Below are positions 1-36,061 of a stretch of 36,061 nt of DNA, piece after piece; positions within the stretch are counted from its first letter, which is position 1; each line of letters starts with the position of its first letter. This DNA is from a virus. Its lineage: Duplodnaviria > Heunggongvirae > Uroviricota > Caudoviricetes. The stretch spans positions 1 to 36,061 of the IMG/VR virus record IMGVR_UViG_2778261222_000004, one strand, 5' to 3'. Made by a program: the position numbers and the translations under genes. Under the pieces are notes generated by a model. It ran no database searches, was not told the origin of the DNA, and saw nothing but the letters and a program-made list of their open reading frames with translations.

Positions 1-1023
1 TTATGTGGATGAAATGTGGATGCCTCCTTTTAACGGATTAAGTGAAATTGCATCCTGGAGGAAATCAGGAGCGAGGTGCGCATAGGTCATAGTTTGCTGG
101 ATCGTGGCGTGCCCCATAATTCGCTGGAGCGTAAGTATATTTCCTCCATTAATCATAAAGTGAGCAGCAAAGGTATGGCGTAGAACATGTACAGCCTGTC
201 CTTTTGGTAGGTCTGGCTTAACACTGCGAAGCACCTTGCGATATTCCTCATAATTGACGTCAAACAAAAGGCCGGATTTCTTTGTTTTGATCTCACTAAC
301 AACTTCATCAGAGACAGGAATAATTCGAACTTTTCCGTTTTTAGTTTTGTTAAACGTCACGCGATTATTGATGATGTGTTCCGCGCGCAGATTTTTCGCT
401 TCTCCCCATCTCGCCCCAGTACTGAGACAAAGTAGCGTAATCCGCCGGGCATCACCGCTTACTGCATCCAGTAATTTGGCGATTTCTTCCATGGTGAGAT
501 ACGTCATTTCGGGTGATTTTCGTTTCAAAGAGGGGAGGGCGCGGAGCGGATTTTCTCCGTGAAATTCCCCGGCATTTGCCAGGAGTGTAAACATTCCTCC
601 GAGATCCGACTCATCACGCCGAACAGTAGACTCTTTTACTCCCAAGGATAAACGGGAGCTTCGATAAGCGGCCATGAAACGAGCATTAATCTGGCTAACC
701 CTTGGATCATTCATTTCTTTGATGATTTTTTTCAACCTGGTTAGAACGCCGTTAGCATATGGCTTATTGCGTCCACCCAATTCCCACCATAACGGAAGCA
801 GATCTGAGAGATGACGTTGCTCTGTTGGCTTTTCAAGCCATTCCTTATCGTGCATGTGGCTGAGAACATAACGCTCAAAGGCCACTGCATCTGCCTTTTT
901 CTTAAAAATCCGCTGAATCCGACGTCCACTTCGGCCACGCGGTCTAACATCCACTTTATACCGTCCACCATCGAGCGCTTTAATTGCCATTGGCAAGCCC
1001 TCCGGTGAAACGAGGAAAGACAT
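1..1023 (-). CDS. int: tyrosine site-specific recombinase (phage integrase, P2 Int-like)
   Basis: 340-aa ORF with ATG at 1023..1021; C-terminal catalytic region (HVLRHTFAAHFMINGG ... GHATIQQTMTYAHL) typical of tyrosine recombinases; lies immediately downstream of the C-type repressor as in P2; its stop codon is nt 1-3 of the window. Confidence 0.9.
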   Translation of the reverse strand: MSFLVSPEGLPMAIKALDGGRYKVDVRPRGRSGRRIQRIFKKKADAVAFERYVLSHMHDKEWLEKPTEQRHLSDLLPLWWELGGRNKPYANGVLTRLKKIIKEMNDPRVSQINARFMAAYRSSRLSLGVKESTVRRDESDLGGMFTLLANAGEFHGENPLRALPSLKRKSPEMTYLTMEEIAKLLDAVSGDARRITLLCLSTGARWGEAKNLRAEHIINNRVTFNKTKNGKVRIIPVSDEVVSEIKTKKSGLLFDVNYEEYRKVLRSVKPDLPKGQAVHVLRHTFAAHFMINGGNILTLQRIMGHATIQQTMTYAHLAPDFLQDAISLNPLKGGIHISST

Positions 1024-9081: not shown

Positions 9082-10041
9082 ATGAAAATTTGTATCGACG
9101 ACGGCTCCACCAACATCAAGCTGGCATGGACTGAGAACGGCGAACGCCGCAACGCCATCAGCCCGAACAGCTTCAAGTCGGAATGGTCTGCGCCGTTCGG
9201 TGGCACGCAGCCCGCGAACTACATGCTTGATGGTGTGCGCTATGGTTTTGATCCGGTCAGCGATCGCTTTGTCCAGACGACCGACACGCAATACCAGTAC
9301 AGCGATGTGAATGTCATTGCCATTCATCACGCGCTGGTCAAATCAGGCATCACGCCACAGGAGGTGGATGTGGTTGTCACCCTGCCACTGAGCGAGTATT
9401 TCGACACAAACGCACAGCCGGACATGGCCAACATCAACCGCAAAAAAGCGAACGTTATGCGCCCGGTGGAGTACCAGAACGGCGAAGCATTCACTATCCG
9501 TAACGTGCGGGTTATGCCTGAATCCATTCCGGCTGGCTTTAAAGCACTGGCCGACATGAGTCCGTTTGAATCCCTGCTGATTGTGGATTTGGGCGGAACC
9601 ACGCTGGATGTGGCAAAGGTTCAGGGGCAGCTGGCAGGTATCAGCCAGGTGTTTTGCGATCCACACGTAGGCGTTTCTCTGATGGCCGATGCCGTGCTGT
9701 CGGTGATGGCCACCAACGGTATGCGCACCAGTCACCACATCGCCAATACCATTATCGAACATCGCCACGATGAAGCCTGGCTGCGCCAGCACATCCACAA
9801 TGACGCGCATTACGCCAGCCTGATGGCAGTTATTCGTGAAAAGGAAGAAACACTGAAACAACGCGTGATCCGCGCGCTGGCGGGTTTTTCGGGTTACGGG
9901 CGGGTGATGGTTGTAGGTGGAGGAGCGGAGATTGTGGCACCCGCTATCTGCGAAGCCTGCGGAGTTAATGCGACTTTCATCGCGGACGGGGTGCCACAGT
10001 TTGCTCTGGTTAATGGGCTGTACGCAATGGACCAGGAGTAA
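9082..10041 (+). CDS. parM: actin-like plasmid segregation ATPase ParM (StbA family)
   Basis: 319 aa; N-terminal phosphate-1 block ICIDDGSTNIKLAW, DVNVIAIHHAL, VMPESIPAG, LLIVDLGGTTLD and MVVGGGAE blocks align by eye along the whole length with plasmid R1 ParM. Confidence 0.9.
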   Translation: MKICIDDGSTNIKLAWTENGERRNAISPNSFKSEWSAPFGGTQPANYMLDGVRYGFDPVSDRFVQTTDTQYQYSDVNVIAIHHALVKSGITPQEVDVVVTLPLSEYFDTNAQPDMANINRKKANVMRPVEYQNGEAFTIRNVRVMPESIPAGFKALADMSPFESLLIVDLGGTTLDVAKVQGQLAGISQVFCDPHVGVSLMADAVLSVMATNGMRTSHHIANTIIEHRHDEAWLRQHIHNDAHYASLMAVIREKEETLKQRVIRALAGFSGYGRVMVVGGGAEIVAPAICEACGVNATFIADGVPQFALVNGLYAMDQE

Positions 10042-10045
10042 ATCA

Positions 10046-10360
10046 ATGACGACACCAACCAGACGGATAAGTTTCTATCTGAAGCCCACCGTCGTCAAGA
10101 GCGAACGGGAGGCGTGCAGTTACCTCGACAGCCTGCCAGCCTCCGAACGCAGCCGCGCACAACGCGCGGCTTTTCTGGCCGGACTGGCTCTTATAAAACG
10201 CACCCCCGCGTTGGCGTATTCGCTGGCAGAATGGTCAGAAGACGAAATACGGATGCCACCGCTACCAGTACAGCCTGAAAAACCGGCGCAACCAGCAGCA
10301 GACAGCGCCCCCCATATGCAGCAGGTGAAAAAGAATATTCAGGCGTTTTTCCCGAAGTGA
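10046..10360 (+). CDS. parR: ParR-like centromere-binding adaptor (ribbon-helix-helix)
   Basis: ATG 10046 with AGGAG about 7 nt upstream, 4 nt after the parM stop; N-terminal block ISFYLKPTVVKSEREACSYLDSLPASERSRAQRAAFLAGLAL resembles R1 ParR; the ORF-track start 9917 lies inside parM and is rejected. Confidence 0.7.
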   Translation: MTTPTRRISFYLKPTVVKSEREACSYLDSLPASERSRAQRAAFLAGLALIKRTPALAYSLAEWSEDEIRMPPLPVQPEKPAQPAADSAPHMQQVKKNIQAFFPK

Positions 10361-10374
10361 AAACAGGAGTAACT

Positions 10375-10662
10375 ATGTCCACCATTACCAAAGAATGGTT
10401 ACAACGTAAAATCACAGAGTTTAAATCGTGGCGCGAAGACATCCCGTTCGGTCTTGATGAAGACGATCACAATATGTTAACCGCACTGGAAATCGCACTT
10501 GCATCACTGGAAGCAGAGCCAGTGGCATGGATACACGCAAATAATCCTATTGGAATACCGGCGATAACAAGAAGTAAAGATGTTGCAGACAGCTGGCGCT
10601 CTAAGGGATGGAATGTATTGCCTCTTTATTCACTGACCCGCTCCATCAATTTATGCCATTAA
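10375..10662 (+). CDS. hypothetical protein (cargo gene)
   Basis: 95 aa from ATG 10375 with AGGAG 5 nt upstream; lower GC than the flanking core genes by eye; no recognisable motif. Confidence 0.45.
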   Translation: MSTITKEWLQRKITEFKSWREDIPFGLDEDDHNMLTALEIALASLEAEPVAWIHANNPIGIPAITRSKDVADSWRSKGWNVLPLYSLTRSINLCH

Positions 10663-10673
10663 TGGAAGTAATC

Positions 10674-11033
10674 ATGATGAAAGATAATTCCGGAAGCCAG
10701 CGTGCATCAGTTGCAGTTATGGTGATGATTAAATTTGTGAAACAGTACACCGGAAAGCCAATCTCGCTCCGGCAATTAAGCAAAGAAACCGTTTCACTGT
10801 CATATCTGGAGCAAATATTCAGATATTTACGGGAAAGTAGCCTGGTAAAAGCCACACGCGGCCCGGGTGGTGGATATATCCCAACAAAAGAAAATTACAG
10901 TGTTGGTGATATTGTCCGGGCAATGAAATGTTCCGGATTATATACACAGCACGTTATTCTGGCTGCACTGGATAATATTTCTTTAACCAGCCTGCAGGAA
11001 GACACAAATTATCAGTTGTCTGCCATTGAATAA
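10674..11033 (+). CDS. Rrf2/IscR-family-like winged-helix regulator (short form)
   Basis: Signature blocks ISLRQLSKETVSLSYLEQIF and RGPGGGY typical of Rrf2-family regulators; ATG 10674 preceded by GGAAG; the ORF-track start 10608 overlaps the upstream gene. Confidence 0.6.
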   Translation: MMKDNSGSQRASVAVMVMIKFVKQYTGKPISLRQLSKETVSLSYLEQIFRYLRESSLVKATRGPGGGYIPTKENYSVGDIVRAMKCSGLYTQHVILAALDNISLTSLQEDTNYQLSAIE

Positions 11034-11101: not shown

Positions 11102-11359
11102 CTATCCGGCCTGCAACAACTCCAGAGCCATTTGTTTTTCTTCCGGACGCATCCGCTCAATCAACAGCTTTAACACACCATTCTCCAGCCCGCTGGGCAC
11201 CAGTGTGTGCGAGTAGGTCAGATTCATCACCCAGGTATGCCCGCACTCAAGACGGGTGCAACGGTAATACACATCAGCAAACTGATCGGTTTTCCAGGCT
11301 GTTTTCTCAATCACTGCATGTGCACCGCAGCAATGACATCGCGCTTTCTGTCTGCGCAT
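11102..11359 (-). CDS. ogr: Ogr/Delta-family zinc-finger late transcription activator
   Basis: ATG 11359..11357 preceded by GGAGG; 86 aa with C-X2-C ... C-X4-C spacing (CHCC ... CTRLEC) typical of P2 Ogr / P4 Delta; the ORF-track start 11428 is an upstream extension. Confidence 0.75.
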   Translation of the reverse strand: MRRQKARCHCCGAHAVIEKTAWKTDQFADVYYRCTRLECGHTWVMNLTYSHTLVPSGLENGVLKLLIERMRPEEKQMALELLQAG

Positions 11360-11424
11360 TTTCCACCTCCCGGAACAGCGTTTTACTGCCACCGATTTTA
11401 CCCGCTCTTTCCCCATACCGCACA

Positions 11425-12459
11425 TCACTCCATGGGTTCATCAAAATCAAGAATAAATTTCACCTCCCCCAGTCGTCTGATATCCGGGTCGCTGTTGATC
11501 CCCTCCATAATCAGGCGGCGCATCGGGATAACCTCATCCCTGTAATATGCCTCGCGGGATTTCAGTGGGTCACCAAGCCCGGCCGTATTTGCGGGAATGA
11601 TGCCGGCAAGTCCGGGTGGGAAACGGTGCGCAACGAGCTGATCCTGGGCACTGATGGTTTTTATATTCAGGAACTCATCTTTTGTACCTGAATCCCCGAT
11701 AGGGATCACCTTAACGCCTTCTTTGTCTCCGCCCGGTATATTGATAAACATGGATTTAAAATTGCCCGCCCCTTTTGACGCCTCTATCTTTTTACGGAAT
11801 TCCGCCTCGAGCTCGGGATCCATGTCCGGGTCAGTGGAATACAGGATATAACCAAGATGTGCGCCGTTCTTGTAATACTTGCGGCGAAAGCGGGTGGCAT
11901 CCACATTCAGCATGGCGGATTCCATCCCGTGAATATAATCCGGGACACCGTAAACCTGCTGTTGCGGATCATAAATGGCCACGAACACCACTTCGCCTGG
12001 CGGGTAAACGAGATCTTCCAGTGCCGCCTGCACAATCACCGTGCCACCCTCGTTGTTACGCCGCAGGTACAGAGAAGGTAACGTATGCAGGCGCACCACT
12101 CGACCGAAGCCATTCCGCACTTTAAGCAACCCCATATCCCCGAATATCAGCAGATTGGTTACTGCTGCCGCCATGGCGGCGTGTGTCATACCACCACCAC
12201 CCCGAAAACCCTGCATGATCATATTGACGCGCGCACGCAATACCGCGCCGTGATACGGTGCGATATTGGACAACATGGCGAGATCCATGCGCTCAATGGG
12301 CGGCGTGTACCAGCCATTATAGCCATCCCAGAGCGAGCCGTAATAACAGCCCCATGCAGCGACCGGTTCCGGGTCACCAAATTCAATAAAAGTCATTTTG
12401 CTGGCTGTTTTTTTTGCCACGCCATCGTGTAACACGGGGTATTTTTTCTTTTTACTCAT
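11425..12459 (-). CDS. portal protein (P2 gpQ-like)
   Basis: 344 aa; conserved blocks RRKYYKNGAHLGYILY and GNFKSMFINIPGG seen in P2-type portals; start overlaps the terminase stop as in the P2 P-Q operon. Confidence 0.9.
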   Translation of the reverse strand: MSKKKKYPVLHDGVAKKTASKMTFIEFGDPEPVAAWGCYYGSLWDGYNGWYTPPIERMDLAMLSNIAPYHGAVLRARVNMIMQGFRGGGGMTHAAMAAAVTNLLIFGDMGLLKVRNGFGRVVRLHTLPSLYLRRNNEGGTVIVQAALEDLVYPPGEVVFVAIYDPQQQVYGVPDYIHGMESAMLNVDATRFRRKYYKNGAHLGYILYSTDPDMDPELEAEFRKKIEASKGAGNFKSMFINIPGGDKEGVKVIPIGDSGTKDEFLNIKTISAQDQLVAHRFPPGLAGIIPANTAGLGDPLKSREAYYRDEVIPMRRLIMEGINSDPDIRRLGEVKFILDFDEPME

Positions 12460-14239: not shown

Positions 14240-14469
14240 AAAATACCTGTGATATTTGTTTTAACCAGTTTTCATCTTTTCCCGGTTCGTTCCGTAACGT
14301 TCCGTAATATCCCATTATTTGCTGCAGGCATTTTTTTAACGATTATCTGTTTTCGATATTTTTCGGATATATGCACATATCCGAAAGTACCGGAAATTAA
14401 TCAGATGACGACATTTTTATTTCTCCGTTAAATAACGCCAGTTTAATTTTTATCAGCGGATTAATTCAG
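14240..14469. promoter_or_regulatory. divergent late promoter region (terminase operon leftward, capsid operon rightward)
   Basis: 230-bp AT-rich spacer between divergent late operons; contains tandem 10-bp repeat CGTTCCGTAA x2 (14288-14307) and palindrome TTCGGATAT-N6-ATATCCGAA (14362-14385). Confidence 0.5.
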
Positions 14470-28328: not shown

Positions 28329-30368
28329 ATGAGCGCACTGTTAACAAAAGCATTTGAAAAGTGGGTTGCTGAATGCACTGCCAGTAATTTACCTGCACGC
28401 CCTGACGCTATTATTTTTGCCCTGATGGAGCGGGAACCAACGCGCGAAGACAATACCGTTCCGGAAGACAGAATCACATACGCTGTGAATGAACTGACCT
28501 GTGGCCAGTTAAGCCAGGACACTATTGTGTGCAGCGCCGTTGTTCCTGATGACTGTGTTTTCAGTTATGACTGGATTTGTCTCATCCATCAGGCCAGTGG
28601 AACGTTATGCGGCGTAATAAAAACTCCCGTCAGACAGAAAACGACAGGTGAGTCACTCGTCCGCAATTTTACAATCACCTACAGAGGCATTGCTCAGTCC
28701 GCGCAAATCAGCGTCCCTCCCCAGAGCTGGCAGGTGGATATCACTCCGGAGCTGAAAACAGCACTGAAAACTCCTAATCACCTGTCAGAAATTGCAGCAG
28801 AAGGCGAAGAGGCGCAACAGGAATCCCGCGACAATCTGGGACTGAAAGTTTCAGCCATAATGGAGCCACAGGGTGATATTCGAGACCGGACTGAAGGTTG
28901 TCTGGCGATACCGGGCGCATTTGGTTTTGGTCATATTTTTATTCCGGGTGATGCTGTCAGGTTTAACAACGAGGCTGATTTGCTGGCATGGGTAAGATGT
29001 GTGGAACCCGGAGAATATTATGTGGAGGGGGGAAGCGGAGTACTTCCCGGCATCGCCTTCCGGGGGATGATAAGTATCCGCTGGCTGGAAGCAGAACGCT
29101 CCACACCTCTGCCACCACATACAGCAAAGGCCATTATTTTCTATGGCATTAACGGTGATATTTATTACAACCGTTACTGGAGTACAGGAAATGGATTGCT
29201 GACTGGCTGGGAAAACCTGAAAGTCAACGAGGCTTCACTCAGGGCGCTGATTGAAACCCGCGCGCCGCTGAACAGCCCGGCGTTCACCGGTACGCCAACC
29301 ACACCAACCCCACCGGATGATGCGGTCGGGCTGGAGATGGCGAACGCGGCGTTTGTCCGCAAACTGCTCGCTGCACTGGTTGGCTCATCTCCGGAAGCCC
29401 TTGACACACTGAATGAGCTGGCAGCGGCGCTGGGCAGTGACCCGAATTTTGCAACGACGGTCACTAACGCGCTTGCAGGCAAACAGCCACTTAGTGATGT
29501 TTTAACCGCCATCAGCAGGTTAAACGCTCAGGCAGATAATCTTCTGTACTTTGATTCGGACGGGAACGCATCGCTGACACGGTTGACGCCAGAAGCCCGT
29601 TCACTGCTGGCACAGGCCACACCGGAAGATATGCGCAGAGTGCTTGAGCTGGAAAGGTCAGACACTGTGGTGCCACAGAATAATATTTATGACCGCAGCG
29701 AAGGCGTGGTGGCCATTCCGGGGACGCTGGGATATGGAGGATATTACCGACATGAAGACAAAGTCATTTTCAGGGGAGAAAACGGCCCTGCTGATTTTAT
29801 TTCCTGGGTATCCACTACACCACCGGGCCGGTATGCGGTAGGAGACGGTACTTCATATAGCGCGCCTCAGATTATTGACAAGGAAAATCGTCTGGAAGGG
29901 ATTGTTGAAATTATTATTCCGGATACAGCCTCCTCGTCTTCGCAATCGCGTGCAGACAAGCTCATTATTTTCATGAGTAAGAAGGGAGAAATGTTTATCA
30001 ACTGGCTGAAATGGACCAGTGCCGGAGCCGGTCTGGCTGGCTGGGGAAATCTCAGCGCGAAGGGATTACGCTCTGCTGACTTCTGGGGAAACCCGGGGAT
30101 TGACGGAGTCACACTGGCAGCAATATCTGTCGCTGACCTTGCCTCACATAAGCGTGGGGACAGGATATCAGGCGAAAAGTTACGGCATGTATCGCTTATG
30201 TTTGAGAACAATGGTAATCCGTGCGCAGCGGCATCGGTTTACAACGTATCGATGATGTACGGGTTATTGCCGGGGTCCTATTTTATTCTGAATGGCTCCA
30301 GTCAGAGTCTGAACTGTGGGAATAAAGCCAATGCCTGGTGGATTTGCCTGGTGATGAGGGCAGAATAA
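28329..30368 (+). CDS. tail fibre protein 2 (P2 gpH-like conserved central motif)
   Basis: 679 aa; contains LNSPAFTGTPTTPTPPDDAVGLEMANAAFV ... SSPEALDTLNELAAALGSDPNFATTVTNALAGKQP, a block widely conserved in P2 H / Mu S / P1 S-type fibres. Confidence 0.85.
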   Translation: MSALLTKAFEKWVAECTASNLPARPDAIIFALMEREPTREDNTVPEDRITYAVNELTCGQLSQDTIVCSAVVPDDCVFSYDWICLIHQASGTLCGVIKTPVRQKTTGESLVRNFTITYRGIAQSAQISVPPQSWQVDITPELKTALKTPNHLSEIAAEGEEAQQESRDNLGLKVSAIMEPQGDIRDRTEGCLAIPGAFGFGHIFIPGDAVRFNNEADLLAWVRCVEPGEYYVEGGSGVLPGIAFRGMISIRWLEAERSTPLPPHTAKAIIFYGINGDIYYNRYWSTGNGLLTGWENLKVNEASLRALIETRAPLNSPAFTGTPTTPTPPDDAVGLEMANAAFVRKLLAALVGSSPEALDTLNELAAALGSDPNFATTVTNALAGKQPLSDVLTAISRLNAQADNLLYFDSDGNASLTRLTPEARSLLAQATPEDMRRVLELERSDTVVPQNNIYDRSEGVVAIPGTLGYGGYYRHEDKVIFRGENGPADFISWVSTTPPGRYAVGDGTSYSAPQIIDKENRLEGIVEIIIPDTASSSSQSRADKLIIFMSKKGEMFINWLKWTSAGAGLAGWGNLSAKGLRSADFWGNPGIDGVTLAAISVADLASHKRGDRISGEKLRHVSLMFENNGNPCAAASVYNVSMMYGLLPGSYFILNGSSQSLNCGNKANAWWICLVMRAE

Positions 30369-32197: not shown

Positions 32198-33891
32198 AAT
32201 TGATACAACGCTGCATGATTAATGGCGAACGGGTGGAAATTGCCGATATAAGCCTTGTTCTTACCCTGAATGCTGCCGGTCGTGGCTTCATTTCTGTTAA
32301 CAATCTGTCACCCGAACACAGCCTTGCCGGCGCAATGGTACAAATTGATCTCGGCCGTGACGGTGAAGCATGGCGCTATTTCTCCGGCTACATTGAGCGC
32401 GATCAACCTGCTGAAAATGGCTCACGTCGCCTTTTTATTCGTGAAGCGGCTGCTGTGCTGGATTTTGATTTCCCTTGCTCCATGCAACACCCGACGTTGC
32501 GGGGGGTACTCGATAATCTGGGGCGACAAAGCGGTATCGTTTTTATCACTCCGGATGCGGATTATGCCAGTATACCAACTCCCTACATCACCCACAGCGG
32601 CAGCGGAGCACAACTGCTCAGCCAACTGGGGCGAGCATTCAGTATCAGCGATTACGTCTGGCACCCTATGCCGGACGGTTCTGTATTTGTGGGAAGCGCA
32701 GCTGATTCACGATTTGCCAGTATTACAATGCCGGATATTCCGCAACAGTACACACTCGGGCAAAGCGGCGGAAACAGCATCGACATCATGTTTATGGAAA
32801 CTGTGCGACCGGGCGTGAACCTACCGGCCGGGCGCATTACCCGTGTAGCCCTCAACAACGAGAAAATGACCCTGACATGGGAGCGCCTTACCGCCACGGG
32901 TACCCCTGTTTCCAAATCACCATTACGCAGACAAATGGAAACACAGTTCCCAGAACTGGCCAGCGGTACGCTACATACCCGGCTGGCGCGCGTCATTGCG
33001 CCAACGGAGCCCACCACCCTGGGCGACGTGGCCGACAGTTTCCGCCCACGCTACGCCGTCGATGTGCAGTTGCTTGATGAGAACGGCAACGATAAAAGCG
33101 ACACGCCCGTTTACCCGGCAGTACCGCTCCCCGTCCCCATGGCTGGCAGTGAGGCGGGATGTTTTGCCTACCCACCGGCAGGCACCATCGTGGAAATATC
33201 CAACATTGAAGGACGTCCGGACAAACCCGTTATCAGGCAAATCTTACCCGCTGGCCATAACCTGCCTGATGTAAAGCCCGGCGAACAGCTGCAGCAACAG
33301 CGCGCAGAAGTGTTTCAGCGCGTCACGACTGACGGAAGCTGGCACAGAGAAACCGATCAGCAAATCAGGGAGCATTCAGCCAGACGAACCATTAACAGCG
33401 ATCAGGAAGAACGCACAACAACAACCAGAACAACAACAGTACAGGCAAACGACATAACCAGCGTTCTGGGAACCAGCAAGCTGATGACAGGCCAGACAGA
33501 ACACATTACTACTGGTCATTATGCGATCGCAGCCGGTGAGCATATCCAGATGGTAGCGCAGGATTTGCTGACTAAACTCAAAGGGGCGACATCCACGATT
33601 GAGCGCGACCTTACTGAAAACGTGGGAGGCCGCAGAACATGCCGGGCGGACGGTGGTCTGGAGTTTACAGCCCCGACAGTATTTATTGGTCGCGGTGGCT
33701 CACGGGAAAAATCCGGACTTAATCTGCTGACGTTGTTGATTGATATTCTGGATCTGGTTCAGTTGCTGGCCACACACACTGCAAACCACACCCACAGCAA
33801 CACCGGCGCACCAACAAACAACAGCGAACTTGCCGCAGACGCCAAACAGGCTACGAGCCTGCGCGAAAAATACGGTGACCTTATCGCCTGA
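32194..33891 (+). CDS. large tail/baseplate structural protein (possible hub / gpD-like; unassigned)
   Basis: 565 aa, last gene of the late operon, followed by an intrinsic terminator; in P2 the last tail gene is D, but similarity could not be confirmed by eye. Confidence 0.5.
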   Translation: MKLIQRCMINGERVEIADISLVLTLNAAGRGFISVNNLSPEHSLAGAMVQIDLGRDGEAWRYFSGYIERDQPAENGSRRLFIREAAAVLDFDFPCSMQHPTLRGVLDNLGRQSGIVFITPDADYASIPTPYITHSGSGAQLLSQLGRAFSISDYVWHPMPDGSVFVGSAADSRFASITMPDIPQQYTLGQSGGNSIDIMFMETVRPGVNLPAGRITRVALNNEKMTLTWERLTATGTPVSKSPLRRQMETQFPELASGTLHTRLARVIAPTEPTTLGDVADSFRPRYAVDVQLLDENGNDKSDTPVYPAVPLPVPMAGSEAGCFAYPPAGTIVEISNIEGRPDKPVIRQILPAGHNLPDVKPGEQLQQQRAEVFQRVTTDGSWHRETDQQIREHSARRTINSDQEERTTTTRTTTVQANDITSVLGTSKLMTGQTEHITTGHYAIAAGEHIQMVAQDLLTKLKGATSTIERDLTENVGGRRTCRADGGLEFTAPTVFIGRGGSREKSGLNLLTLLIDILDLVQLLATHTANHTHSNTGAPTNNSELAADAKQATSLREKYGDLIA

Positions 33892-33927
33892 TCACCGGGC
33901 ATACCCCCCCATAAACGCCCATCACGC

Positions 33928-33957
33928 AACGCACGGCTCCGGTCGTGCGTTTTCATA
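33928..33957 (+). terminator. rho-independent terminator of the late tail operon
   Basis: Stem AACGCACG / CGTGCGTT with 8-nt loop followed by TTTT, 37 nt after the stop of the last tail gene. Confidence 0.55.
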
Positions 33958-34013
33958 TCTGCCACCTGATTAATGCGTTCTGCGTGCCATTCTGGCGCTG
34001 TATGCGCACACCG

Positions 34014-34050
34014 CGTAAACGGTGTGACGTAAAGCGTGAGGTGACGTAAA
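34014..34050. repeat. three spaced copies of a CGTAAA-containing motif, including direct repeat GTGACGTAAA x2
   Basis: GTGACGTAAA at 34024-34033 and 34041-34050; CGTAAAC also at 34014-34020. Confidence 0.5.
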
Positions 34051-34156
34051 CCGCGCTACCCCCTCCAACCCGCGGGTTTTGTGTCGAAACAGTTTTTCAG
34101 TTTTCTGCCGTGCAAAAATGACCGCCAGCCCGCGCAGCAACTGAGGGAAAAGCGAA

Positions 34157-34414
34157 GATCTGAAATTTCACACTTTGAAATTTTTTTCAGTTTTCAGAGT
34201 GGTTTTTACGATCGCACAAATGGTAGGAACAATAAAACAGCATGATATTAAAAGAGTTTTCATACTTTACGCGAGACGAAAAACGATCACTAAAGGATCG
34301 CATCAAACAACCATCAAACAAAGAAGCCAGACGCGGCGCGGCCTGCGTAAAATCAAGAGCCAGAATTAAACTGAAAAAAGGATCAATGCCGCGCCTTGAT
34401 CGCGCATGACGATC
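34157..34414. promoter_or_regulatory. GATC-rich, repeat-rich non-coding region (candidate origin or methylation-sensitive control region)
   Basis: Seven GATC sites in 258 bp (34157, 34210, 34285, 34296, 34381, 34398, 34411); direct repeats TTTTTCAGTTTTC (34093 and 34183), TGAAATTT (34161 and 34176), tandem CATCAAACAA with 11-bp period (34301 and 34312). Confidence 0.35.
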
Positions 34415-34430
34415 TACGCAATAACAGGAC

Positions 34431-34455
34431 AAAAAACCGGCGCGAACGCCGGCGG
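34431..34455 (-). terminator. putative intrinsic terminator for a leftward transcript
   Basis: Stem CCGGCG / CGCCGG with a 4-nt loop; on the minus strand it is followed by a U6 tract (plus-strand A6 at 34431-34436). Confidence 0.45.
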
Positions 34456-34533
34456 AAGCATGTATCAAATGCGTGACTGAATAATGTCTGCGTTCAGGAT
34501 ATGCACAACAGAGTGTTGAAATTAGTCAACGTA

Positions 34534-34563
34534 TTGAAGCAAGAAAAAAAAGCAGGCTAGAAT
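34534..34563 (+). promoter_or_regulatory. candidate sigma-70 promoter upstream of the hok-like gene
   Basis: TTGAAG (34534-34539), 18-bp spacer, TAGAAT (34558-34563). Confidence 0.3.
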
Positions 34564-34719
34564 TCACGCGGACACCTTTCGACTGATGGCTGGACAGCAA
34601 ACACGAAGGCCAGATGTAAAAAGGCCCAACTAAACCTTATGTTCAACTCTGGGCGTTTCACAACGTAATCAATAAGCGGGCAAGAGCTTAGCGCCTTTGC
34701 AAAAAAAGGAGCAAGTGCT

Positions 34720-34860
34720 ATGTCGCAAAAATCGCTTATAGCCATCACGTTCTGCGTGACGGCAATCCTCATCATCTGGATGCTGCACGGTTCGCTGTGC
34801 GAGATACGGATGAGCTTCTGGGGAGCGGAGTTTGCGGCGTTCTTACAGTGTAAGCAGTAA
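34720..34860 (+). CDS. hok: Hok/Gef-family type I toxin (small membrane peptide)
   Basis: 46-aa ORF not in the ORF track; RBS AAGGAG 8 nt upstream; N-terminal TM helix (LIAITFCVTAILIIWML) followed by the Hok signature SLCEIR and a periplasmic tail containing ...EFAAF...C. Confidence 0.65.
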   Translation: MSQKSLIAITFCVTAILIIWMLHGSLCEIRMSFWGAEFAAFLQCKQ

Positions 34861-34869
34861 GGAAACCGC

Positions 34870-34891
34870 GACGGGGGAGTAATCCCCCGTC
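34870..34891 (+). other. strong 9-bp hairpin with GNRA-type loop immediately 3' of the hok-like ORF
   Basis: GACGGGGGA - GTAA - TCCCCCGTC; positioned like the 3' fold-back elements of hok mRNAs. Confidence 0.45.
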
Positions 34892-34947
34892 AATCGGTTG
34901 CTAAGGTTGGCTGAAGTGGCACCCTATCTCACAGACATGAACAACAA

Positions 34948-34980
34948 ACCCGCAGCGTAAAAACTGCGGGTTTTCTTTTT
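34948..34980 (+). terminator. rho-independent terminator of the hok-like transcript
   Basis: Stem ACCCGCAG / CTGCGGGT with 8-nt loop followed by TTTTCTTTTT. Confidence 0.7.
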
Positions 34981-35112
34981 GTTGCCCTCACAAATGAGGG
35001 TGACACTATTCGTAAGCAATAGGCATGACAGATCGATGCAATAAATCCGAACGATAAAAACGATCGATTTGTTATCATATCGGCAGCAGTAACCACACAA
35101 GAGGTGCCGCAA

Positions 35113-35325
35113 ATGACGCAAAATGTACGATGCAAAAATTGCAACAAACTACTTGCCCGCGCCTCATTTCACTACATTGAAATAAAATGTCCGCGCTGCA
35201 AAACACTTAACCAGATAACGAGAGCCATTGAGCACCCCACACACATGAGGAGTTATGACCGTGGGGATCGCAATCCAGCACCAACCAGCACATACACCGG
35301 AACACACCAAGGTTTATCAGACTGA
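35113..35325 (+). CDS. com: Com-like zinc-finger translational activator (Mu Com family)
   Basis: N-terminal RCKNCNKLL ... IEIKCPRCK matches the Mu Com zinc finger almost exactly; ATG 35113 with AAGAGG upstream; 3' end overlaps the methyltransferase start as com overlaps mom in Mu. Confidence 0.8.
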   Translation: MTQNVRCKNCNKLLARASFHYIEIKCPRCKTLNQITRAIEHPTHMRSYDRGDRNPAPTSTYTGTHQGLSD

Positions 35326-36061
35326 CAATGCCACGCTCTGTCGTGGGAATGCGCTGGAAATATTGCCGCTGATTGAGCCAGAAAGCATTGATGCCTTAAT
35401 CACTGACCCACCTTACAGTTCGGGTGCGACACACAAGGCCGGACGCACCAACCAGGGCAGCCATGCAAAATATCTGAACGGCGAGAACCTTCACCGCTTT
35501 GATGGGTTCGCGGGTGAAAACATGGACGCCCGTTCGTGGGCTTACTGGACACAATTATGGATGGCACAGGCACACCGCGCAGTCAGGCCGGGCGGTTATG
35601 CCCTGGTATTTACTGACTGGCGACAACTACCAGCTTTAACCGATGCGTTTCAGGCCAGTGGCTTTACATGGCGCGGCATCATTGCGTGGAACAAGGGGAG
35701 GGGGTCACGAACACCCCATACCGGGTATTTCCGGCATCAGTGCGAATACATTGTCTGGGGCAGCAAAGGCCATTTAGATAAATCGCCTTCGGGGCCGTTC
35801 GACGGCTGCATGACGTTCCCGGTTATCCCGTCAAAGAAAATGCACCCGACCGGAAAACCAGAAGAACTAATGGCAGAGCTGGTCAGAACTGCGAATAGTG
35901 GCGGAACAGTCCTTGATCCCTTTATGGGGTCAGGAACAACGGGTGTGGCTGCACTGAAAGCAGGGCGAAAATTTATTGGTATAGAAACCAGTGATCATTA
36001 TTTTGAGGTAGCAGCGCAGCGGCTTCGGGGGACTATTACCACAACCATTTCGACTACATAA
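35255..36061 (+). CDS. orphan DNA methyltransferase (beta-class amino-MTase, N6-adenine or N4-cytosine)
   Basis: DPPY motif (DPPYSSG) near the N-terminus and FxGxG (FMGSGTTG) near the C-terminus, i.e. motif IV before motif I; no adjacent restriction gene in the window; the start could be ATG 35255 or GTG 35261. Confidence 0.85.
   Translation: MTVGIAIQHQPAHTPEHTKVYQTDNATLCRGNALEILPLIEPESIDALITDPPYSSGATHKAGRTNQGSHAKYLNGENLHRFDGFAGENMDARSWAYWTQLWMAQAHRAVRPGGYALVFTDWRQLPALTDAFQASGFTWRGIIAWNKGRGSRTPHTGYFRHQCEYIVWGSKGHLDKSPSGPFDGCMTFPVIPSKKMHPTGKPEELMAELVRTANSGGTVLDPFMGSGTTGVAALKAGRKFIGIETSDHYFEVAAQRLRGTITTTISTT

Follow-up and report, generated by a model that had tools for sequence, protein, structure and literature searches.

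Is the pair of overlapping genes at the right end of this P2-like E. coli prophage a mom-type operon, in which Com controls a DNA-modifying enzyme other than Mom? In phage Mu, mom is governed by Dam/OxyR and by Com (PMC3378877), and a preliminary description of the window, i.e. of the whole stretch of 36,061 nt that was analysed, had drawn the analogy to the mom operon from a Com-like zinc finger, GATCGAT sites and an overlapping methyltransferase gene. The analogy has gained support, as a Com ribbon, a Com hairpin, a start-occluding stem-loop, a GATC cluster and a downstream methyltransferase have each been found. It is likely that the operon is a mom-type, Com-gated DNA-modification unit with an orphan beta-class amino-methyltransferase in place of Mom. 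What the analysis has established to this end is homology, motifs, covariation and conserved geometry.

Position of the operon

The operon consists of com and the methyltransferase gene and occupies the right end of the prophage, adjoining attR. The methyltransferase gene is neighboured by hok/gef and com on one side and, past the edge of the window, by attR and raiA on the other. Behind hok/gef, a bidirectional intrinsic terminator (34946-34973, no strand assigned) with a GC-rich stem of 10-11 bp and T-runs on both strands shields the com operon from upstream transcription; the features of the operon itself all lie on the plus strand. Compared over the whole 36 kb, the window and NZ_CM129880 differ by 9 mismatches and 1 gap.

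The Com protein

The first gene, com (35113-35325), encodes a CCCC zinc-ribbon protein of 70 aa that is predicted to be a translational activator, on the basis of Pfam and PHROG matches and of an alignment to Mu Com. It matches PF10122 (Zn_ribbon_Com) with 44.4 bits at a cut-off of 22.9 (E = 1.1e-11) and phrog_13819, 'gpCom control of modification', at 3.2e-16. The RCKNCNKLL and CPRCK finger that was said to be shared with Mu Com is indeed shared: including these motifs, 25 of 42 residues are identical (60% over the finger), and the zinc cysteines C7, C10, C27 and C30 (CxxC...CxxC) align with C6, C9, C26 and C29 of Mu, the zinc-binding residues of Com having been listed before (PMC3299994). 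A Shine-Dalgarno sequence AGAGGTG (35100-35106), read from the sequence, precedes the ATG at 35113 by 6 nt. PGAP names the product 'Com family DNA-binding transcriptional regulator', which is probably wrong; the Com of Mu acts as an activator of translation that binds to RNA (PMC6483171, PMC3378877). The RefSeq protein accessions are not mentioned in the literature searched.

An orphan beta-class methyltransferase

The second gene (35261-36061) encodes a beta-class N6A/N4C DNA methyltransferase of 266 aa if translation begins at a GUG codon, or of 268 aa if it begins at the ATG at 35255, as judged from profile, motifs and the start of its protein cluster. It overlaps com by 65 nt when counted from the GUG (65-71 nt over both start choices). 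The ORF matches PF01555 (N6_N4_Mtase) at 2.5e-33, and thus both profile searches that had been suggested at the outset, for this family and for Com, returned their match. Motif IV (DPPY, 35405-35416, residue 51) precedes motif I (FMGSGTTG, 35921-35944, residue 223), which is the beta-class order, and profile match and motif order together bear out that com overlaps a beta-class amino-methyltransferase instead of Mom. The catalytic DPPY and the SAM-binding FxGxG are intact, and a loss of catalytic residues, which the preliminary description had considered as a counter-argument, is therefore not seen. An identity of the protein as Mom, the acetamido-adenine enzyme, is ruled out by the PF01555 match, and a Dam/M1.DpnII-like (alpha, D12) architecture by this match and the order of IV before I. 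Structurally characterised relatives in the PDB are M1.HpyAVI/DpnA-like enzymes, CcrM, MboIIA, RsrI and PvuII, and the nearest named proteins carry only the generic label 'site-specific DNA-methyltransferase'; among close relatives, none that has been characterised was found.

Also the orphan status of the enzyme has been confirmed: there is no adjacent restriction endonuclease, and no restriction gene is found anywhere in the prophage of a 99.97%-identical E. coli record, in which the next annotated gene is the host gene raiA. A methylome paper on ST131 does not cover the methyltransferase of the window (PMC4659465).

The enzyme could also be an adenine methyltransferase without sequence specificity, in the manner of Hia5 or M.EcoGII, and its heavy regulation would then be due to a toxicity as with Mom. 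The com-linked enzymes Hia5, Hin1523 and Nme1821 are nearly sequence-non-specific, but those of the Hia5 type are in a different class and align with Dam and M1.DpnII (PMC3299994), whereas M.EcoGII is a beta-class enzyme that is prophage-borne, silent and deleterious (PMC5778455). The enzyme of the window is small and offers little space for a target-recognition domain. Homologues with 54-61% identity, however, occur in other phages without com, unregulated in their operons, which counts also against the Com-gated model, and the gene is intact in relatives that lack the GATC cluster described below. Orthology with M.EcoGII (349 aa) was rejected, as there is only 22-33% identity, limited to the motif regions, to the 352-aa methyltransferase of phage 1720a-02, which we take to be an M.EcoGII-like enzyme and which has about 85 extra residues. 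This phage is named in the M.EcoGII paper as the carrier of a very similar enzyme (PMC5778455). Taken together, a non-specific enzyme is unlikely here.

The GATC cluster and a putative promoter

The two GATCGAT sites that had been noticed upstream of com are confirmed in their positions: site 1 (35031-35037) begins at -82 relative to the com ATG and is kept in all relatives, and site 3 (35062-35068) lies 51 nt upstream of that ATG. The 36 kb window contains no others, with a chance expectation of 3.6 in total, so that their count is unremarkable; it is the spacing that is telling. The two correspond to the outer members, sites 1 and 3, of a GATC triple that has a spacing of 18/13 bp in every close relative, in Yersinia and in Mu, agn43 having 19/13, and in about 394 kb of scanned sequence, triples with 18-19/13 spacing were confined to agn43 and to positions upstream of com. 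The middle site is degenerate in the window (GAACGAT, 35049-35055) due to an A at 35051 in place of a T, while all relatives have GATCGAT; within the last 7382 nt, the window departs from NZ_CM129880 at this base only (T35051A). As read from these comparisons, a single T-to-A change at 35051 destroyed the middle GATC site in the window. Of the proposed Mu-like, Dam-sensitive control sites, the likeness to Mu thus stands, on account of homology and of the spacing in relatives, but not the view of them as a pair, which is in fact a triple minus a middle site that was lost to a SNP. Among the com loci of the set, the non-enteric ones have no GATC triple.

The cluster is part of a predicted OxyR-like binding region (35019-35068). 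Its homologue in Mu is the Dam/OxyR region of Pmom, and by our own reading the two are 74% identical without gaps. The OxyR consensus is matched with 15/20 at 35019-35055 and with 14/20 in the register of Mu and agn43 (35028-35064), with Mu reaching 13 and agn43 14; when 2000 130-mers were drawn at random from the window, only 9 scored at least 14. In three relatives (L035-L037), the whole GATC cluster is deleted and the methyltransferase is intact, which suggests that a control by OxyR/Dam is dispensable.

A putative extended -10 element, TGTTATCAT (35070-35078, hexamer TATCAT at 35073-35078), was read from the sequence, and transcription would start near 35085. At this position, Yersinia has TATCAT and Salmonella TATAAT, and every E. 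coli relative has TGYTATCAT, even where the GATC cluster is deleted. A sigma-70 scan, which needs a -35 match, returned no promoter in the stretch from the terminator to com. As to phage activators, the Mu C site TTAT-N6-ATAA is absent in 34974-35112, and the annotation of the 99.97%-identical prophage contains no Mor/C protein but lists an ogr/Delta zinc finger. The P2 Ogr site TGT-N12-ACA does not occur upstream of com either; there are 8 copies in the window versus 9.3 expected, the one at 35188 being inside com. A late-promoter inverted repeat at 14362-14385 is unique and is absent at the com promoter. From GATC site 3, the com ATG is 51 nt away in the window but 78 nt in Mu, and therefore the GATC/OxyR region of the window overlaps the core promoter, while that of Mu is located at -87 to -53.

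It is this overlap with an extended -10 promoter, which may be self-sufficient, that could allow the competition of Dam and OxyR to generate heritable ON and OFF lineages. The operon might then work in lysogens as a bistable switch of the agn43 type, not only late in the lytic cycle, with ON cells expressing Com and the methyltransferase, by which the prophage would give its host a second methylome that is phase-variable. At agn43, three GATCs are contested by Dam and OxyR, and the bistability springs from the same competition (PMC4872104). The GATC spacing of the window is close to that of agn43 with an OxyR score that is at least equal, the cluster covers -35 and spacer, unlike the far-upstream position in Mu, no phage late-activator site is recognisable, and the operon has a moron position by attR, beside the autonomous hok/gef cassette and with its own terminator in front. 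Yet the homologous element of Mu gates a late gene and is not phase-variable, the -35 of the com promoter is poor, methyltransferases of E. coli prophages are commonly silent in lysogens (PMC5778455, PMC4659465), and methylome evidence for the enzyme was not found in the literature, and a switch of this kind is thus quite unlikely. Very unlikely is also its consequence that an epigenetic switch controls an epigenetic writer, i.e. that Dam/OxyR bistability drives the Com-gated methyltransferase as a prophage-borne 'phasevarion' in E. coli lysogens; if it were true, the T35051A allele of the window would be a natural switch-bias mutant.

The predicted Com hairpin and the predicted occlusion of the start codon

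The experimentally defined target of Com is CC(N)2-3GAG in a hairpin loop of 5-6 nt, beside an inhibitory stem-loop that has the GUG of Mom in its stem (PMC6483171). A predicted Com-binding hairpin of this kind is found in the window at 35222-35235 (GAGC-CAUUGA-GCAC), with the motif CCAUUGAG at 35225-35232. Its second pair is an A.A mismatch, so that 3 of 4 stem positions are paired, and this mismatch is conserved as A.A or A.C in the clade of the window and as C.A in Yersinia and Salmonella; the stem is the weakest of the family. The Com motif is present in 27 of 27 distinct variants of the com locus at the corresponding position, 16-44 nt (usually 22-25) past the CPRC(K/R) codons, and the 4-bp stem covaries among them (AUGC/GCAU, GCAC/GUGC, AGGC/GCCU, GGAC/GUCC and others). 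In these stems, 96.3% of the cells are paired and 29 are changed on both sides, and none of 500 shuffles reached as high. The gene after com is of three types across the loci, coding for Mom, for a D12/alpha-class or for a beta-class methyltransferase; the D12-like proteins of other loci are characterised by PIIPWMGGK... and a DPPY near residue 175, and in two loci (L068 and L076) the automatic call of the downstream gene picked an ORF of low complexity, the frame of which is probably wrong.

Directly at the Com hairpin begins a stem-loop that is predicted to inhibit translation (35235-35266), with an outer stem CCCCAC/GUGGGG and an inner stem CAUGA/UUAUG, the GGAG of the Shine-Dalgarno sequence in the loop, and both the AUG at 35255 and the GUG at 35261 paired. 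It folds at -16.2 kcal/mol (z = -2.3), and a start-occluding hairpin, which the preliminary description had suggested to look for around 35240-35270, thus exists in the predicted fold, with Shine-Dalgarno sequence and start buried. The outer stem is invariant in the E. coli, Yersinia and Salmonella relatives, and as it never varies, it gives no evidence from covariation; the inner stem is not kept in five loci (L026, L027 and L035-L037). An extended inhibitory helix, in which RNAfold pairs the Com loop with 35271-35274, was dropped, as it is not conserved in relatives. An Rfam scan of 33500-36061 (E <= 1) yielded only a sub-threshold Leu_leader match on the terminator, there being no curated family for the Com element.

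The Shine-Dalgarno sequence of the methyltransferase, GAGGAG (35247-35252), is located 8 nt before the GUG, a layout that is kept in the Yersinia and Salmonella relatives and that is similar in Mu with 7 nt. The Salmonella relative has no AUG there and its annotated start is ATT, and the cluster representative (P0001, 1486 members) begins with MGIAIQ, which corresponds to a GTG start. The true start of the methyltransferase is probably the GUG at 35261 rather than the ATG at 35255, and the start codon is then probably mis-called in many records.

Ribosomes that translate com traverse the inhibitory stem, and plain translational coupling could therefore contribute to the expression of the methyltransferase. 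That Com is altogether irrelevant to it, with ordinary coupling in its place or with Com being a DNA-binding transcription factor, and that the GATCs are due to chance or bind e.g. SeqA, is highly improbable, since the PGAP product name, the ORF overlap of 65-71 nt, the mismatch in the hairpin and a GATCGAT count not above chance would fit such a view, but Mu Com binds RNA and activates translation (PMC6483171, PMC3378877), the hairpin with its defined motif covaries over the family, a conserved stem conceals both the Shine-Dalgarno sequence and the start codon, and the spacing of the GATC triple is kept in Mu-like and P2-like phages and is otherwise known only from agn43 in the scanned sequence.

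A model for the control of the methyltransferase

For a Com-gated unit, the following order of events can be proposed, for which we infer RNA binding, OxyR binding, the timing of expression, and activity and specificity of the enzyme. A weak promoter with the extended -10 would start the operon transcript near 35085, and the GATC cluster, which matches the OxyR consensus, would cover its -35 and spacer region. The homology to Pmom of Mu and to agn43 suggests that OxyR would bind and repress as long as the GATCs are un- or hemimethylated, and that methylation by Dam would relieve this repression. Com would be translated via its own ribosome-binding site, while the start of the methyltransferase (GAGGAG and GUG 35261) would be locked in the stem-loop within the com coding region. 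Com would then bind to the adjacent hairpin with its loop CAUUGA. The hairpin and the base of the inhibitory stem have C35235 in common, and binding of Com would open the inhibitory stem, so that the methyltransferase would be made only after Com has accumulated. The enzyme could modify replicating phage DNA, and host DNA as well, and thereby guard the progeny against restriction in the next host.

Comparison with known systems

The operon belongs to a class that is already described, as pairs of Com and a methyltransferase have been reported from Mu-like prophages and are part of the annotation of a P2-like Burkholderia phage. Like in the window, Mu has a Com hairpin whose 6-nt loop carries CC(N)3GAG and which immediately precedes the inhibitory stem, arms CCCAC/GUGGG with the Shine-Dalgarno sequence in the loop and the GUG start in the stem, a GATC(GA) triple with 18/13 spacing, of which the window retains sites 1 and 3, and an operon that is located at the very right end of the genome. 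Unlike in Mu, the gene of the window codes for a beta-class SAM-dependent methyltransferase and not for Mom, the hairpin stem has a mismatch, and the phage is P2-like, encodes an Ogr/Delta zinc finger and has neither a Mor/C protein nor a C-binding site.

Com-linked methyltransferases replace mom in FluMu (HI1522.1/Hin1523), Pnm1 (Nme1821) and Hia (ComHia/Hia5) (Drozdz et al. 2012, PMC3299994), and in these elements, Hia being that of H. influenzae biotype aegyptius, as well as in Pseudomonas phage B3 (ORF47/48), the gene in the position of mom codes for an adenine-methyltransferase and directly follows that of a Com homologue. Com-dependent control has been proposed for these operons, with the enzyme silent in the lysogen (PMC3299994), but their enzymes are Dam/M1.DpnII-like (alpha/D12 class), whereas that of the window is of the PF01555 beta class. 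Closer in this respect is the P2-like Burkholderia phage KS5, in which gp21 is a Com translational regulator and gp20 an N-4/N-6 DNA methylase (Lynch et al. 2010, PMC3091744). Its com gene overlaps that of a PF01555 methyltransferase with 40.6% identity to the enzyme of the window, and a Com hairpin AGGC-CACCGA-GCCU is followed by a stem that occludes the Shine-Dalgarno sequence. In contrast to the window, the KS5 pair, which is known by annotation only, is located between tail-fibre and sheath genes and not at attR, has no GATC cluster, and its inhibitory stem is formed by an anti-Shine-Dalgarno sequence that overlaps the 3' arm of the hairpin. With agn43 (flu), the window has in common the layout of a GATC triple in an OxyR site, with 18/13 (as in its relatives) in comparison to 19/13, the GATCGAT context, and a position close to or over the promoter, but agn43 is a chromosomal adhesin gene without a Com layer, and the window retains two of the three GATCs in an OxyR site that is predicted.

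The comparison indicates that the complete mom control cassette, i.e. the OxyR/Dam GATC cluster, Com, the Com hairpin and the start-occluding stem with its GUG, moves among unrelated phage lineages and has been joined to at least three unrelated DNA-modification genes. The gene com is a useful marker of tightly gated genes of this type, and the current understanding is not overturned by these findings. In a megablast search of phages, Chuche was the only one with the module. The operon of this window is already annotated by PGAP, and the orphan methyltransferase is carried by 171 of 5426 complete E. coli genomes (about 3%).

The com-methyltransferase module

The gene pair at the prophage's right end, the small zinc-ribbon gene com (35113-35325) and a methyltransferase gene that overlaps it and extends to 36061, is real, and its interpretation as an analogue of the mom operon of phage Mu is supported; every statement on the sequence in the preliminary description was correct on checking. 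The Com-like protein reaches 44.4 bits against PF10122 (cut-off 22.9) and is identical to Mu Com at 25 of 42 positions, a stretch that spans both CxxC pairs. The second product, described as an orphan beta-class amino-methyltransferase, matches PF01555 (N6_N4_Mtase) at 2.5e-33, carries DPPY on the N-terminal side of FMGSGTTG, as beta-class enzymes do, has intact catalytic and SAM-binding motifs, and is found without a restriction gene nearby. Its solved relatives are M1.HpyAVI/DpnA-like enzymes, CcrM, MboIIA, RsrI and PvuII, and of 33 close relatives three have truncated copies. The enzyme is not orthologous to non-specific methyltransferases of the M.EcoGII type, sharing 22-33% identity, in the motif regions only, with the 352-aa enzyme of phage 1720a-02 (taken to be of that type), and it does not belong to the Hia5 class. 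Because of the analogy with mom and with com-linked methyltransferases (PMC3299994), we infer that the enzyme may have an anti-restriction role in lytic growth.

The combination as such is known. A methyltransferase gene replaces mom behind com in FluMu, Pnm1, Hia5 and B3 (PMC3299994), com with an N4/N6 methylase is already annotated in the P2-like Burkholderia phage KS5, and also the present locus is already labelled by PGAP and Pharokka-style annotations. No statement was found in the literature examined that a complete Mu-type OxyR/Dam GATC cassette moves together with com into P2-like prophages of enterobacteria, that it overlaps the core promoter there, or that the Com hairpin covaries across the family; these three points are incremental additions.

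GATC sites and the putative promoter

The two GATCGAT sites that had been described upstream of com are indeed the only ones in the window (35031 and 35062; the com ATG follows 82 and 51 nt later), but the notion of a pair has to be revised. Three GATCs at offsets 0, 18 and 31 precede com in all 30 close IMG/VR relatives, in the phage Chuche, in other E. coli genomes and in a Yersinia kristensenii prophage. In the window the middle site is GAAC, with A at 35051 where MB07081, the 30 relatives, Chuche and Yersinia have T; the window differs from MB07081 in the final 7382 nt by this base alone, and at ten places in all over the whole prophage. The pair is therefore a triple that lost one Dam target by a recent point change. 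A35051, which lies in the presumed -35 region, abolishes the central Dam target of the OxyR-like cluster; it could be a switch-biasing mutation, a chance SNP or a sequencing error.

Mu has three GATCs upstream of com at the same offsets (positions 660, 678 and 691 of the Mu sequence), and over the 39 nt that span them it is by our count 74% identical to the E. coli clade without gaps. In E. coli K-12 the regulatory region of agn43, the textbook switch by Dam/OxyR competition (PMC4872104), also has three GATCs, 19 and 13 nt apart, largely in the GATCGAT context. Such triples occur 40 times in about 394 kb of sequence compared, always upstream of com or at agn43. On the OxyR consensus ATAGnTnnnAnCTAT-N7-ATAGnTnnnAnCTAT the region in the window scores 15/20, or 14/20 in the register common to Mu and agn43, which themselves score 13 and 14; nine of 2000 random 130-mers from the window score at least 14. 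In three IMG/VR relatives (L035-L037) the entire cluster is deleted, leaving a tight palindrome, ATAACAAAT-CA-ATTTGTTAT, with com and the methyltransferase gene intact, and these are natural variants that lack the presumed OxyR/Dam control.

A sigma-70 scan from the terminator to com found nothing. From its sequence and conservation, TGTTATCAT (35070-35078) can be read as an extended -10 element; at this position there is TATCAT in Yersinia, TATAAT in Salmonella and TGYTATCAT in all E. coli relatives. If transcription starts near 35085, the spacer would contain GATC site 3 and the -35 region site 2, with site 1 at about -54. This is unlike Mu, where the cluster is roughly 55-87 nt upstream of the start with the C-protein site in between; site 3 is 51 nt from the com ATG in the window and 78 nt in Mu. 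Upstream of com, neither a Mu C site nor a P2 Ogr site (TGT-N12-ACA) was found, nor does the inverted repeat of the phage's own late region recur there. This perfect repeat, TTCGGATAT-N6-ATATCCGAA, lies at 14362-14385 in the divergent terminase/scaffold intergenic region and occurs once in the window, with 0.02 copies expected. That intergenic region has no canonical P2 TGT-N12-ACA site, and the repeat is a candidate target of the Ogr-like late activator that the phage encodes.

Predicted translational control

The published target of Com is a short hairpin with CC(N)2-3GAG in its six-nucleotide loop, directly 5' of a translation-inhibition structure whose stem contains the GUG start of Mom (PMC6483171). 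The window has a predicted counterpart, GAGC-CAUUGA-GCAC at 35222-35235 (motif CCAUUGAG), immediately followed by a stem-loop in which CCCCAC (35235-35240) pairs with GUGGGG (35261-35266); Mu has AUGC-CUGCGA-GCAU and then CCCAC...GUGGG. A start-occluding fold is thus predicted (-16.2 kcal/mol, z = -2.3), with the AUG at 35255 paired in the inner helix CAUGA/UUAUG and GGAG of the Shine-Dalgarno sequence in the loop. For 82 com loci the motif that comes first downstream of the CPRC codons was taken, a selection in which the flanking 4-bp stem played no part, and this gave 27 distinct hairpins. Among these the stem is paired in 96.3% of cells and both sides have changed at three of the four pairs; none of 500 shuffles scored as high, and shifted registers reach at most 53% of cells. 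The unpaired cells belong to the window clade only (A.A or A.C at pair 2); the Yersinia and Salmonella relatives have C.A there. In several com loci the 3' arm of the hairpin doubles as the anti-Shine-Dalgarno strand of the next stem; one such case is KS5, with AGGC-CACCGA-GCCU, then CCUC pairing with GAGG.

Judging by comparative sequence, the methyltransferase most likely starts at the GUG at 35261, with a 65-nt overlap with com, because a Shine-Dalgarno sequence 8 nt before GUG is common to the window, Yersinia and Salmonella (the gap is 7 nt in Mu), because Salmonella has no AUG, and because the representative of the 90%-identity cluster (1486 sequences) begins with MGIAIQ, which corresponds to a GTG start. 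In the two Salmonella loci the annotated start is a downstream in-frame ATT; about 40 nt before it, the conserved stem contains a GUG from which the frame is open, and this is likely the true start.

Distribution and genomic context

The gene after com in IMG/VR loci encodes Mom, a Dam/D12-like methyltransferase, the beta-class enzyme (window clade) or another methyltransferase. Homologues that are 54-61% identical to the window enzyme reside without com in Mu-like and other prophages; closer ones (67-73%; Yersinia, Salmonella) retain com. The module is present in 171 of 5426 complete E. coli genomes. In two IMG/VR loci (L068, L076) the automatic ORF call downstream of com probably took the wrong frame, since its translation is of low complexity and rich in Ala, Ser and Pro; Com might gate a modification gene of another class there.

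As a whole the window represents a complete P2-related prophage, with the integrase gene at one end (1-1023, minus strand) and the methyltransferase stop codon at the other (36061). It encodes a portal, terminase, capsid and replication nickase of P2 type, a P88-like tail and, on the minus strand at 11102-11428, an Ogr/Delta zinc-finger regulator. It is 99.97% identical to the prophage between pheA and raiA in E. coli MB07081 (9 mismatches, 1 gap). The last 1.4 kb hold, in this order, a toxin gene of the Hok/Gef family (34720-34860; Pfam 2e-07, phrog 'MokW-like host killing' 8.5e-23), a bidirectional terminator (34946-34973), com and the methyltransferase gene. The hok gene adjoins the com operon upstream, and the trio hok-com-methyltransferase is found also in Yersinia kristensenii; near it are a further terminator (34869-34892) and a promoter-like site (34534-34563), and Rfam detected no Sok antisense RNA. 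The stretch of ~830 bp that separates hok from the baseplate gene (33892-34719) is free of annotated genes in the near-identical record of E. coli. It contains small ORFs without Pfam match, has no Rfam match and no megablast match in the phage collection, and includes seven GATC sites within 258 bp (34157-34414); the leader of the hok mRNA (mok/sok region) may account for part of it.

A 679-aa ORF (28329-30368) is split by RefSeq (28825-30336 in the MB07081 record) into a truncated tail-collar fibre pseudogene and a partial 'shikimate transporter' pseudogene; its PHROGs matches are tail-fibre families only (residues 1-460), and either the fibre gene is chimeric or its annotation is odd. ParM-like and plasmid-partitioning proteins, annotated by RefSeq in the same record (9578-10856, about 9082-10360 in the window), are unusual for a chromosomally integrated P2-like phage.
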